Assembly (NCBI GenBank): GCA_050248915.1
Contig: JBFWRL010000007.1
Location: 6,084-70,083 of the forward strand
Source: Candidatus Sericytochromatia bacterium
GTDB lineage: Bacteria > Cyanobacteriota > Sericytochromatia > UBA7694
Direction: 5' to 3'
Length of the DNA: 64,000 bases
Shown: positions 13,242-53,781 of the stretch, piece after piece
Layout: every line of letters begins with the position of its first letter
Position numbering within the stretch: the stretch's first letter is position 1
Program-made: the position numbers and the translations under genes
The notes under the pieces: generated by a model
Told to the model about the DNA's origin: nothing
Databases searched by the model: none
The model's input: the letters and a program-made list of their open reading frames with translations, nothing else

Positions 13242-14471
13242 GTGTTCTCTATGTTGTCCAAATCCACCCCCTTGCGTCTCTTGGCCCTTTCAATTTTATT
13301 GGCCGCCTGCGCGCCTTTGGCCACCCCTGGCCTGCGCTCGGCCGCACCCGTTGTCCTGCAAAAACAGAGCACGGGCCCAGCCATTGACGACAGTGAATTG
13401 AGCAGTCCTTTAAAAGCCAATCTCTTGCCCCAACTCGAACAAGAGGCCACCCGCCGCGAAGGCAACCAGCTCGTGTTTCGGGCTGTGGCACTCAGCCGCC
13501 AAGGCCAGCGTCCACTCAATTCGAGCCGTTTGGACGTGCAGGGCCAGTTCAATTATTACGATTTGCAGGGCCAATTGCAACCGGCGGCCAATACCACGGT
13601 GGCCCTCTACCAAGGCAGTCGCAAGGTGGGCCAGGTCTTGACCAGCCCCGATGGCCGCTGGAGCATGGTTGCACCGGCACCGGGCAATTATCAGGTGCGT
13701 TATAGCTTTGCCAATCCCCGCTGGAATATCGAGCGCTACAGCTGGGACGGTCCCCAGGTCAGTGTTCAGAGTGCCGTAGATACTGGGGCTTATACCCTTG
13801 AAAAAGGCAGTAAAAATGCCGAAGCGGCTTTTATCCACGATGTGTATAACCGGGCTCTCCATCTGTTTGAACGGGAACAAATGGATCTGAGCTGGTGGTC
13901 ACGCACAATCAAGACAGTCTGGCCAGGTTCTGGTGATTATTACAGCTTTTACACCGTCAATTTGACAGGGGCCCAGCAATGGGACGTCAATGGCCATGAA
14001 ATTGGCCACGCGATTTATGATCAGGCCCTCAATGCCAATTCAACCGGTGGGCAACACAAAATTGACGAATGTTATAACGGCACCCTGGCTTTTTCAGAGG
14101 GCTTTGCGACCTTTTTCTCTGGAGCGGTTCATTTGCAGCGCAATGATGAAGACGCCCGCTTTGGCCCCTATTTGGTGCCGCGCCGCGCGCCGATCCGAAT
14201 GGAAAATACCCCTGCGGATGTCTGTCCCGGCAACCGCAATGAATGGCGAGTCTCTTCCGTGCTCTGGGACGTTTACGATACCCATGTCGATGGTGTGGAT
14301 CAGTTCAGCCTCTCACTCAAAGAGATCTTCTCACTCTTTGCCCAGACCAACAAGCCGGCGATTAACAGCGCCTTGGATGCTTACCAATTGCTGAAAGAAC
14401 GCACCCCCGCAGAAGCGCGCCCGGTTTTGCGCCAAATTTTTGAGCAAAACACCATGGAAGTCAAAGATTGA
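13242..14471 (+). CDS. Putative secreted zinc metalloprotease lipoprotein (HExxH)
   Basis: Lipobox LLAAC. HEIGHAIYD zinc-binding motif in the middle of the protein. Confidence 0.6.
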   Translation: MFSMLSKSTPLRLLALSILLAACAPLATPGLRSAAPVVLQKQSTGPAIDDSELSSPLKANLLPQLEQEATRREGNQLVFRAVALSRQGQRPLNSSRLDVQGQFNYYDLQGQLQPAANTTVALYQGSRKVGQVLTSPDGRWSMVAPAPGNYQVRYSFANPRWNIERYSWDGPQVSVQSAVDTGAYTLEKGSKNAEAAFIHDVYNRALHLFEREQMDLSWWSRTIKTVWPGSGDYYSFYTVNLTGAQQWDVNGHEIGHAIYDQALNANSTGGQHKIDECYNGTLAFSEGFATFFSGAVHLQRNDEDARFGPYLVPRRAPIRMENTPADVCPGNRNEWRVSSVLWDVYDTHVDGVDQFSLSLKEIFSLFAQTNKPAINSALDAYQLLKERTPAEARPVLRQIFEQNTMEVKD

Positions 14472-14850
14472 TACTGGGCCGTTTATCAGTGGTTCAGAGC
14501 AGGGGAGGCCTGGCAGGCATGCGGGCCGCTCATTACGCCCATCCATGGGCTTCATTCGCTAAGAGTCGCAGTGCCGTCGTGTCCTCCTGACACGGCACTG
14601 CTCCTATTGCCCGCATCACCTTGCCAGGCCATTCCCCTGCTCAAGGGCCTCTTGGCTCAAAAGCTGTCCGAATCGATGTTCCAAGCTCAATTCACTTGCC
14701 CGTATTGACTCCATAATAGCTATGTTAACCCGTCCTCTTGCAGCTCTTTGAAACGGGGAGTCAAATACCAGATCTACCTGACTTTAGAGCTGAAGTACAA
14801 CTGCCGTAATCCAGGGAAATGCCCAATTCAACCCGTTCGAGCAGAGTTGC

Positions 14851-14975
14851 GGCCAGGGATGGGCAGAGAAGGCAATAGGAGGCCCGCCGGTCCAGGATGG
14901 ACAAAGGCGGGGTGACTTTTAGCCCGTGAAGCGCACGATGCGTGGAACGGGCGGCCTGAACGCCCATCCCTGGCC
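14851..14975. ncRNA. Candidate structured RNA or miniature inverted-repeat element inside the 700-bp non-coding gap
   Basis: Perfect 14-bp long-range inverted repeat ggccagggatgggc (14851-14864) / gcccatccctggcc (14962-14975) enclosing a 97-nt GC-rich, hairpin-rich core. A second strong hairpin lies at about 14565-14600. Confidence 0.35.
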
Positions 14976-15180
14976 GCCCACTCAGGTACAAAACCCAGTT
15001 TATGAAGCACAACACCTGCTCCCACTGGCCCTCACAGCCAACGACCATTCAGTCCAGCCCCCTGCTCAGCTTAAGCCCCAACGGGAATTGGTGCGTGTGT
15101 TATAATTCAGATCCGGTTGCAGAACCAATCTGTTTTATCTGCAAGCGCTTAGAATTGGTTAAGGAGTTTTCAATCCAATC

Positions 15181-15504
15181 ATGGCCGTAAAAGAAGTCAA
15201 CGATCAAAATTTTGCTGAAGAAGTGCTCAATGCAAGTTCTCCCGTCTTAGTCGATTTTTGGGCACCCTGGTGTGGCCCTTGCCGCCTGGTTTCCCCCGTG
15301 GTGGACGAAATTGCCAAAGAATATGATGGCAAACTCAAAGTTGTCAAAGTCAATACCGATGACAATCCCGAGACTGCCACCAATTACCATATCAGCGGGA
15401 TTCCCTCACTGCTGCTGTTTAAAGAAGGCCAAGTGGCCGATCAAATTGTCGGTGCTGTGCCCAAAGCCAAGCTTTCCAATATGGTCAGCCAGCACGTTTC
15501 TTAA
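15181..15504 (+). CDS. trxA: Thioredoxin
   Basis: WCGPC active site. Typical 107-aa thioredoxin. Confidence 0.95.
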
Positions 15505-37553: not shown

Positions 37554-37613
37554 ACAGATTGTATTCAGAAAAGCCAATATTGTACAGTAAACTGTACAGG
37601 AGGTGATTCAATC

Positions 37614-37865
37614 ATGAAAGCCATCAGTTATACAACCGTTCGCCAAAATTTTGCCCAAACCATGGATGAAGTTTGCCAGGATCATGCCCCTGTGATTGTC
37701 ACGCGTAAACAAAATGAATCTGTGGTGATTATTTCTCTGGCCGATTACCATGCCATGGAAGAAACGGCCTATTTGCTGCGCTCGCCCAAAAATGCCCGCC
37801 GTTTGCTGAATGCCGCCTTGGAACTTGAAAATCAGCAAGGACAAGAACGGACCCTGTTGGAGTGA
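37614..37865 (+). CDS. yefM: YefM/Phd-family antitoxin
   Basis: MKAISYTTVRQNFAQTMDEV...PVIVTRKQNESVVIISLADYHAMEETAYLLRSPKNARRLL is a canonical YefM. Confidence 0.85.
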   Translation: MKAISYTTVRQNFAQTMDEVCQDHAPVIVTRKQNESVVIISLADYHAMEETAYLLRSPKNARRLLNAALELENQQGQERTLLE

Positions 37866-38116
37866 AGCTCATTTTTTCTGAGGGCGCTTGGGAAGACACT
37901 CTCTTTTGGCAAAAAACAGACAAAAAAATCCTCTTCCGAATCAATCTGCTGATCAAAGAAATTTGTCGCACCCCTTATGAGGGGATTGGCAAACCCGAGT
38001 CCCTCAAACATGCCCTGGCAGGCTATTGGTCTCGGCGCATCAATGATGAACACCGAATTGTCTATAAAGTCGAAGGGGAATCGCTATTAATAGCACAATT
38101 GCGCTACCACTATTGA
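37862..38116 (+). CDS. yoeB: YoeB/Txe-family toxin (mRNA interferase)
   Basis: KLIFSEGAWEDTLFWQKTDKKILFRINLLIKEICRTPYEGIGKPESLKHALAGYWSRRINDEHRIVYKV. GTG start overlaps the yefM stop (GTGA). Confidence 0.85.
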   Translation: MKLIFSEGAWEDTLFWQKTDKKILFRINLLIKEICRTPYEGIGKPESLKHALAGYWSRRINDEHRIVYKVEGESLLIAQLRYHY

Positions 38117-38169
38117 GAGAATGAAAAAAGAAGAAGATTAAACAATCTCATTGAATAGGGAGAACATCT

Positions 38170-52996: not shown

Positions 52997-53037
52997 AAAA
53001 GTATCCTAGCAAAAGACAGGGGCTGGGGGAATCAGTA

Positions 53038-53781
53038 TCAGCGCGCAGGAGCTGTAACAGGGCCTGTAAACTGTTTTAAGACCCCAGTTGATCTAAATTT
53101 GAGCCATTGTCCGTAATAAAATGTCAATTCTTCGTAGAGCTTCACCATACCCACATCGGGGGCATACCAATAGTTGAGAAAGTCCTCTTTGCCATTGTCA
53201 TAGCGCAGGTGGTGTTCCATTTTTAGGGCCTGAAAGGTGCCAGCGGGCACCGTTACAGTTTCAAAACCCACCACACGGATGGTTTCAGAACCACCTTGAA
53301 AGAGACGGCCTTCCCAGGCTTTGCCACTTTCAAAGGGCAATTGCAGGGCAATGATAAAATTTTTGCCCCGCAGGACAGGCTCTTGCAGCGCAAAGCTCTC
53401 ACGCAGCACCTGTTCGTGGTAGCGTGAGAGTTCGACCCGATCAGCAAAGCGTTTGGCCAAGGTGGGGGTGGGTTTGATATCCGAATCGGGATACGAGCGG
53501 CGCAAAACCGCAGTTTGGGCCTCGCCTTCGGTGCCATTGGACTCCACACGCATGACCATGGTCTTAAATTTGGTATTGGGCTGGTCATTCTGACTCTGTT
53601 CCAGCAAATAGGTCCAGGAGCGGCCCATCTCCAGTGGATAATAGCGCTGCATTTGGGTGGCATTGACGGGTGCCTTTTGGGCCAAAAGGGGAGCGTTGGC
53701 ACTTTGGGGCGCACGCGCAGGCAAAACAGCAGATTGACAGGCACTCAAAAGCAAGAACAGGGCGAGGGGCAGCTTGCGCAT
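53038..53781 (-). CDS. Hypothetical lipoprotein
   Basis: Signal peptide and lipobox LLSAC. 247 aa. Confidence 0.5.
   Translation of the reverse strand: MRKLPLALFLLLSACQSAVLPARAPQSANAPLLAQKAPVNATQMQRYYPLEMGRSWTYLLEQSQNDQPNTKFKTMVMRVESNGTEGEAQTAVLRRSYPDSDIKPTPTLAKRFADRVELSRYHEQVLRESFALQEPVLRGKNFIIALQLPFESGKAWEGRLFQGGSETIRVVGFETVTVPAGTFQALKMEHHLRYDNGKEDFLNYWYAPDVGMVKLYEELTFYYGQWLKFRSTGVLKQFTGPVTAPAR

Follow-up and report, generated by a model that had tools for sequence, protein, structure and literature searches.

What is known of structured intergenic repeats comes mainly from cultured Proteobacteria and Firmicutes. Those of the ERIC/IRU type are imperfect, non-coding palindromes of 100-200 nucleotides (nt), located in transcribed intergenic regions and often just 3' of genes; they can be present or absent between related genomes, they show size variants due to insertions and deletions (indels), and their sequence is better conserved than the spacer. 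REP and PATE elements, in turn, can stabilise the upstream mRNA. Here we describe an element found twice, as copies E1 and E2, in a 64,000-nt stretch of DNA from Candidatus Sericytochromatia bacterium (contig JBFWRL010000007.1, positions 6,084 to 70,083), which we call the window. Both copies lie upstream of the thioredoxin gene trxA, and they are inverted paralogous members of a structured element family that is absent from Rfam, is supported by covariation and has relatives in the Candidate Phyla Radiation (CPR).

Two inverted copies of one structured element

The two copies occupy a gap which the initial annotation, made from the sequence of the window, had described as non-coding and as the longest of the window. 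A crude tiling of open reading frames (ORFs) agrees, as no other stretch without ORFs of at least 100 amino acids (aa) is longer. The annotation had regarded the minus-strand ORFs of the gap as spurious; the small ORFs had no Pfam match and their frames are broken by strain-to-strain indels, for instance a 64-nt insertion and several deletions. Furthermore, ARAGORN reported neither tRNA nor tmRNA, and a promoter and terminator scan of the gap gave nothing above the shuffle expectation.

Two hairpins had been reported in the gap as separate features. Both are real, and both turned out to be parts of homologous elements in opposite orientation: the local alignment of 14472-14710 with the reverse complement of the remaining gap scores 46, against 18.3 +/- 2.3 for shuffles. 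The inverted repeat described as 14 bp long is perfect over 16 bp, with 97 nt between its arms (14849-14864 / 14962-14977), and it closes E2; by our own calculation, chance would produce a perfect 16-nt inverted repeat inside 200 nt about 0.003 times per 64 kb. The second hairpin, placed at ~14565-14600, spans 14568-14601 and is merely the P4 arm of the larger E1 structure. Both copies fold far better than chance: the fold of 14490-14650 (E1) has -94.5 kcal/mol (z = -9.1) and that of 14840-14985 (E2) -89.6 kcal/mol (z = -8.0), with 0 of 200 shuffles as good in either case. Over all the copies folded, the z-scores ranged from -7.2 to -11.6. The features of the gap that belong to the two copies are the following, with bit scores from the covariance model (CM) R1 described below:

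14472-15180: the non-coding gap of 709 nt, from the stop codon of the 409-aa ORF to the trxA start codon (15181)
14494-14645, + strand: E1, the intact copy (170.8 bits), starting 17-25 nt past the upstream stop codon
14497-14526, + strand: 5' strand of the E1 closing stem (P1a 14497-14506, P1b 14507-14517, P2 14519-14526), pairing with 14609-14642; based on inverted repeat I9, the fold and helices 1-4 of the covariation count
14528-14559, + strand: P3 of E1, an irregular hairpin with a GC-UC...UC-GC base and a UCCA loop (helix 5)
14560-14567, + strand: joining strand J3/4 of E1 with the motif TAAGAGTC, present in all copies except one diverged copy
14568-14601, + strand: P4 hairpin of E1 with the loop CUCCU (inverted repeat I3; helices 6-7)
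14602-14608, + strand: joining strand J4/2 of E1 with the motif TCCTATT, which together with the preceding C gives CUCCUAUU
14609-14642, + strand: 3' strand of the E1 closing stem (inverted repeat, fold, covariation)
14646-14845: mosaic spacer between E1 and E2 (14646-14705 82-85% conserved, 14706-14798 window-specific, 14799-14845 95-96%)
14846-14980, - strand: E2, the paralogous copy (104.7 bits on the - strand), complete in the window and variable between lineages
14849-14864: closing-stem arm of E2, 16 nt perfect, pairing with 14962-14977 (inverted repeat I2)
14962-14977: the other closing-stem arm of E2, 16 nt perfect (I2), the sole surviving arm in the related loci L009 and L001

E1 and E2 converge. 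The element is about 150 nt long (150-230 nt across copies) and reads, from 5' to 3', as an irregular closing stem P1/P2 of at least 30 bp, a three-way junction, P3, the joining strand UAARAGUC, P4 and CUCCUAUU, which resembles the anti-Shine-Dalgarno sequence. The unpaired motifs GCTAARAGTC and CTCCTATTGCC are common to E1 and E2; the sequences of their hairpins differ and the pairing is kept. A pattern made of two motifs matches the window twice, in E1 and E2 only, against 0 matches expected, and alignments A2 and A4 show no variation in the J3/4 motif. At the junction, CU of CUCCUAUU pairs with AG of UAAGAGUC in J3/4, a pairing that appears as GG/CC in the relative L030 and as UAU/AUA in L028. 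Tandem U.C/C.U internal loops are found at the base of P3 (GC-UC...UC-GC) and of P4 (AG-UC...UC-CU); the one in P3 is retained in the Sungbacteria copies introduced below, with CC/GG pairs instead in L007 and E2.

Neither blastn of the gap against the window nor R1 run with filters off over its 64 kb found any copy besides E1 and E2. A third, degenerate copy downstream of E2, proposed from direct repeats D2-D4 (425 nt apart), was rejected, since its alignment score of 23 is not significant against shuffles (15.9 +/- 2.2, maximum 25). No reading frame is common to the copies, and the frame relative to the conserved motifs differs from copy to copy. Moreover, no U-tract follows the element at any copy; therefore, it is not an intrinsic terminator.

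Relatives, covariation and insertion sites

The motif pattern was scanned over one genome per GTDB species and then over metagenomes. Among the genomes, it matched two metagenome-assembled genomes (MAGs) of Sericytochromatia/Blackallbacteria, JBIKWL01 and JBPXJQ01. Both have an orthologue of E1 (L008 and L009) as well as a further copy, E3 (L006 and L007), at a second locus, which is flanked by a YgjP-like gene on one side and a divergent Vut_1 transporter gene on the other. The metagenomes gave five contigs of a distant second group (L012, L014 = L016, L018 = L021), whose RNase J most closely resembles the one from Candidatus Sungbacteria (Parcubacteria/CPR). Other matches were apparently coding, were left unmatched by the CM and were discarded as chance matches (L010 and L011 in the genome scan; L013, L015, L017, L019 and L020 in the metagenome scan).

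The CM R1, with 54 base pairs, was built from seven Blackallbacteria sequences only. Nevertheless, it recovers the Sungbacteria copies in L012, L014 = L016 and L018 = L021 at E-values of 8e-7 to 2e-4 and, with filters off, two further diverged Sungbacteria copies (L030, 1612-1752, and L028, 7315-7462), which brings the range over all five to 8e-7 to 1e-2. In the model-guided alignment, 87.8% of the cells hold standard pairs, versus 36-42% after a shift of the partners by 1-3 columns. Changes on both sides were seen in 40 of the 54 pairs, and none of 500 shuffles reached the observed values. Both-side changes affect 11 of the 13 pairs of P4 (helices 6-7). RNAalifold, run on an independent MAFFT alignment, found compensatory changes in 20 of 35 pairs. 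Thus, the paired arms are conserved in relatives through compensatory changes, which the initial annotation had named as a thing to look for. The ends of the closing stem are common to E1 and E3; the closing stems of E2 and of the Sungbacteria copies are unrelated. On the modelled strand G.U pairs outnumber A.C pairs (28 versus 13), which favours this strand as the folded one, either as RNA or as single-stranded DNA.

Regarding known families, Rfam gave no match at the gathering score in the window, where a 6S or SRP-like small RNA (sRNA) had been suggested. With Rfam 15 at E<=10, the region 14300-15300 matched only mir-702 (20 bits against a threshold of 70, E = 1.7), which is noise, and nine related loci, E3 and the Sungbacteria copies included, had no match at E<=5. 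The motif scan of viral contigs gave 0 matches and blastn against plasmid and phage collections none. A full-text literature search for the motif strings returned unrelated primers only, and a keyword search for structured RNAs of CPR nothing relevant.

Three other features were seen on the Sungbacteria contigs. The rpoB-rpoC gap of L030 contains, at 1081-1205, a second perfect-stem element with a closing stem of 17 bp and a core of 91 nt; it was suspected to be an inverted paralogue and shows no significant similarity to the family. The same gap holds an ORF of 34 codons with two CxxC motifs (METRNCQNCKKDFVIAPERMEIVYCEACYNVEII; about 1380-1480, - strand). A different long-stem hairpin lies in the rnj-trpS gap of L028 (1990-2120); it has only the TTCGCCTGATGGTGAAGCC apex in common with P4 of the family and may be a degenerate or variant copy.

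Two relatives have the gene order of the window (PKD protein, 409-aa gene, trxA, LmeA, SpoVS) and a short gap without the element ahead of trxA. It measures 113 nt in L022, where the protein is 82% identical, and 102 nt in L023/L024, which belong to Blackallbacteria CG17 (72%). Carriers of the element have 478-760 nt between the 409-aa gene and trxA. At the second locus, the YgjP-Vut_1 gap is 73 nt in L032, 72 nt in L033 and 38 nt in L034, versus about 330-400 nt where E3 is present. R1 with filters off found no match in these element-free relatives at either locus. These short syntenic gaps of 38-113 nt at both loci show that the copies in Blackallbacteria are lineage-specific, recent insertions, and filled and empty sites at two independent loci are the behaviour of a mobile element. 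Similarly, the rnj-trpS gap of Sungbacteria is 42 nt in L029 versus about 640 nt in L021. In L006, E3 itself has an insertion of 77 nt relative to L007 (4942-5018). The final 32 nt of this insertion duplicate the 3' arm of the element itself (TTACCCAGTCAGGCTTTTCCCCAGCTCAAGTA), and part of it resembles the 3' flank of E1.

Most copies follow the stop codon of a gene in the same orientation. Besides E1, behind the 409-aa gene, these are:

L030 copy: 5 nt past the stop codon of rpoB, co-oriented
L012 copy: about 40-60 nt past the stop codon of rpoB, co-oriented
L014/L016 copy: 9 nt past the stop codon of clpB, co-oriented
L018/L021 copy: about 27-45 nt past the stop codon of rnj, co-oriented
L028 copy: 4-5 nt past the stop codon of a penicillin-binding-protein gene (PBP/ftsI), co-oriented

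From this placement, the copies may be transcribed in 3' untranslated regions (UTRs), or else insertion may be targeted behind stop codons.

The copies differ in how well they are kept. E1 is 97.4-99.3% identical to its counterparts in L001, L008 and L009, versus 88-96% for the adjacent gene and 50-85% for the spacers. Along the gap, the identities between the window and L008 are:

3' end of the 409-aa gene: 87.6%
E1: 99.3% (1 of 152 positions differs)
spacer 14646-14705: 85%
spacer 14706-14798: about 50%, mostly indel
spacer 14799-14845: 95.7%
trxA: 93.5%

This near-invariance of E1 may reflect strong selection or recent exchange between lineages. E2, on which the initial annotation had focused, is the less conserved copy and is complete in the lineage of the window only. 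Its left half is missing from L001, L002 and L005, a 64-nt insertion interrupts its UAAAAGUC strand in L008, and in L009 nearly all of it is deleted and one arm remains. From these alignments we infer that E1 is the maintained copy and E2 a decaying inverted duplicate. The differences in E3 are concentrated in P3 (10 of 17), and one change in P4 is compensatory.

Several segments of the gap deserve a separate mention. The 47-nt spacer adjoining E2 (14799-14845) is 95-96% identical in L008 and L009, although L009 lacks E2, and the neighbouring spacer is at 50-85%; it may be the outer flank of the E2 unit or a separate conserved site. The ~93 nt at 14706-14798, with TTGACT and TATGTTAACC strings, occur only in the lineage of the window and in L003; they are replaced by a different 38-nt sequence in L008 and L009 and are absent from L001. 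A segment of 42-46 nt (GTAGGTTTGCTTCAAGTCTGCTCAAATAGGGAGCTTTCACGGG) that is present in L008 (1417-1462) and L009 is absent from L001 and from the window (at 14486/14487); where present, it lengthens the outer stem of E1 and holds a weak promoter-like TTGTAG-17-TCAAAT. Finally, the P3 hairpin exists in two sequence types which follow neither locus nor genome: that of E2 in the window (14926-14956) is like that of E3 in L007, and that of E2 in L008 is like that of E3 in L006. This cross-distribution suggests that the copies have exchanged sequence by gene conversion.

The rest of the gap and its surroundings comprise:

13242-14471, + strand: the 409-aa ORF, upstream neighbour of the gap
15098-15106, + strand: probable trxA promoter, extended -10 TGnTATAAT (TGTTATAAT), assigned by consensus only and outside the element
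15114-15147, + strand: hairpin in the 5' UTR of trxA (inverted repeat I12), outside the element
15161-15166: Shine-Dalgarno sequence of trxA, AAGGAG, downstream of both copies
15181-15504, + strand: trxA, downstream neighbour of the gap

The extended -10 lies downstream of both E1 and E2 and is kept in all the strains and in the element-free L022 and L023 (TGCTATAAT); the 5'-UTR hairpin and the Shine-Dalgarno sequence are likewise kept in element-free relatives. The extended -10 probably marks the native intergenic region. The loop of the hairpin varies between strains (15114-15147; L001, about 2950-2990; L004, 1-25) and is longer in L008 and L009. The loops of L004 (TGAAAAGTATCAA) and L001 (TTGATACTTTTCA) are reverse complements of each other, as though flipped between the stem arms; the L004 copy sits at a contig end and could be an assembly artefact. 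No Pfam domain is present in the 409-aa protein. Its homologues carry the names Candidatus Blackallbacteria or Sericytochromatia, and those with 35-60% identity are named in Sericytochromatia, 'Obscuribacterales', Elusimicrobia, Wallbacteria and Bdellovibrionaceae; a few of them have a faint CarboxypepD_reg match. Elsewhere in the window, two more stretches of over 600 nt have no ORF of at least 100 aa (52997-53669 and 37554-38169); the element model found no match in them, the best score being 12 bits at 53294-53335.

What the element may be

The interpretation that we favour, with moderate confidence, is that of a low-copy, non-autonomous, structured mobile repeat which is likely to be transcribed in 3' UTRs, with its rod acting as a barrier and its junction bound by a factor. 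The element would be mobilised by a factor encoded elsewhere. As 5 of 7 intact copies are co-oriented and lie 4-60 nt behind stop codons, the element is most likely transcribed with the upstream mRNA, as its 3' UTR or as an intercistronic part of it. By analogy with REP and ERIC, the very stable rod could serve as a 3'-end barrier or processing site, and the conserved junction may be the site recognised by a binding or mobilising protein.

A number of points weigh against this interpretation. For a plain barrier at the 3' end, it would be unnecessary to conserve the junction across phyla. Two copies depart from the usual placement, E3 lying in a divergent promoter region and E2 being antisense to its neighbours. 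E3, with 88.8% identity, changes no more slowly than its flanks (92-94%), so the near-identity of E1 could mean recent exchange rather than selection. No target-site duplication is recognisable at the E1, E3 and L030 junctions, where the empty sites are too diverged for exact boundaries; no linked transposase or related insertion sequence (IS) was seen in the neighbourhoods examined, and no terminal repeat is conserved between the subfamilies. Under the strict pattern there are two loci per MAG plus E2, or 2-3 copies per genome, and the rest of the 64-kb window holds no further copy. Finally, the covariation counts come from about ten distinct sequences in few clusters, in an alignment fitted to the model.

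Another explanation is purely selfish DNA, similar to miniature inverted-repeat transposable elements (MITEs), REPINs or PATEs. The conserved hairpins would then be recognised in single-stranded DNA by a transposase from another locus (e.g. HUH/Y1) and would have no role as RNA. We consider it possible but unlikely. The filled and empty sites at two loci, the adjacent inverted paralogues, the internal insertions, deletions and arm duplications, the patchy distribution over two unrelated phyla and the closing stems, perfect over 16-24 bp, all fit it, and the strand-biased G.T pairs are equally expected if single-stranded DNA of the top strand is recognised. Nevertheless, 2-3 copies per genome are few for such DNA, neither a target-site duplication nor a partner transposase was seen, the conserved centre and variable termini are the reverse of ordinary MITEs, E1 is conserved far beyond neutral spacers, and the copies are strongly biased in orientation with respect to the upstream genes. 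The initial annotation had put forward a MITE-like element or a novel structured RNA, and a good part of this proposal stands: there are extra copies (E1, E2 and E3) with compensated arms, present or absent at two orthologous loci, and they are small (150-230 nt) and non-coding, with no Pfam match and no conserved frame. Yet it does not look like a textbook MITE: its terminal repeats are not conserved between copies, no related IS was seen, few copies were found under the strict pattern, and no target-site duplication was visible. None of the genes beside the copies (those for the PKD protein, the 409-aa protein, trxA, LmeA, SpoVS, rpoB, clpB, rnj, trpS, Vut_1 and YgjP) is a reverse-transcriptase gene such as accompanies a retron msr-msd, and the copies have no conserved small hydrophobic ORF as in type I toxin-antitoxin systems.

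If the copies were independently transcribed, trans-acting sRNAs, their CU-rich motifs (the CUCCU loop of P4 and CUCCUAUU at the junction) could bind ribosome-binding sites, or the whole could act as a 6S-like decoy of RNA polymerase. The conservation of the single-stranded CUCCU motifs, the near-invariance of E1, the shape of rod, bubble and apical stem, the two copies behind rpoB and a weak promoter-like TTGyAG-17-TCAArT upstream of the full-length E1 (L008/L009) and of E3 (L006) speak for it. We find it doubtful, as the window and L001 have lost the promoter-like segment (46 nt) and L007 lacks the -10-like part of it, the copies that start 4-9 nt past a stop codon leave no room for a promoter of their own, no terminator follows the element, neither 6S nor any other Rfam family matches even at E<=10, and close relatives live without the element. 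Very improbable, in our opinion, is a divergent universal RNA (6S, SRP, RNase P or tmRNA) or a new self-cleaving ribozyme or ligand-binding RNA. A three-way junction with joining strands conserved across two phyla would suit such an RNA; there is, however, no Rfam match, and the element is multi-copy, recently inserted and dispensable in close relatives. Compared by eye with consensus sequences, the junction does not appear to match the cores of hammerhead, twister and hairpin ribozymes, nor any K-turn, loop E or tetraloop-receptor consensus. The long 5' leader or riboswitch for trxA that the initial annotation had also considered is scarcely credible. The copies do form a large structured region upstream of trxA, but the probable trxA promoter is downstream of both, and therefore they would not lie between promoter and start codon; relatives keep trxA and its promoter in a gap of 102-113 nt without the element, sister lineages have lost E2, and other copies stand beside unrelated genes. 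A bolder variant of the mobile repeat, which we regard as quite unlikely, is a new class of mobile structured RNA whose junction, with its tandem U.C loops, would either be catalytic or be recognised by a reverse transcriptase or recombinase. Its occurrence in both Candidatus Sungbacteria and Blackallbacteria would then record gene flow, in groundwater, from or to a CPR lineage and a possible host of it.

The favoured interpretation, a transcribed mobile repeat, concerns an element family from two uncultured lineages, the non-photosynthetic Cyanobacteriota (Sericytochromatia) and CPR. Its traits are unusual: a branched junction is conserved instead of the ends, the element seems to persist at very low copy number, and its copies follow immediately on stop codons in core genes (rpoB, clpB, rnj, ftsI). 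A junction that proved to be a module of the protein-binding or ribozyme type would be a new RNA motif for Rfam. Candidatus Sungbacteria are presumed episymbionts, and if the distribution across phyla is due to transfer, it could give a handle on the associations between CPR and their hosts. For annotation purposes, the longest intergenic gap of the window is explained by the element and not by a regulatory leader of trxA.

Comparison with known structured repeats and RNAs

Rfam families such as 6S RNA, bacterial SRP, Chloroflexi-1 and Cyano-1/2 are similar in their length of 150-200 nt, their long closing stem and their helices supported by covariation. However, none of them scores above noise, and the element described here is a recent insertion that is dispensable in close relatives.

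REP/REPIN sequences, associated with RAYT, and the PATEs of IS200/IS605 are nearer in behaviour, as they too conserve hairpin structure over sequence, are strand-asymmetric and non-autonomous, and usually lie 3' of genes. REPs, in contrast, are 20-40 nt long, very numerous and have a conserved GTAG head, and REPINs are simple hairpins with no branched core, whereas here the unit is branched and of 150 nt. Neither a RAYT nor a TnpA gene was found in the neighbouring DNA examined.

The closest known kind is the structured intergenic repeat of the ERIC/IRU group, in which we include bcr1 of Bacillus cereus, BOX and RUP of pneumococcus, the Correia elements of Neisseria and the Rickettsia palindromic elements. 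There are differences: 2-3 copies per genome versus tens to hundreds, a central three-way junction conserved instead of the ends, closing stems that differ between copies with their pairing held by compensation, relatives in two phyla, and no TA or other target duplication seen. Nevertheless, the element resembles them in its size, its non-coding nature, its placement 3' of genes, its presence or absence between relatives, its indel variants and its conservation above that of the spacer.

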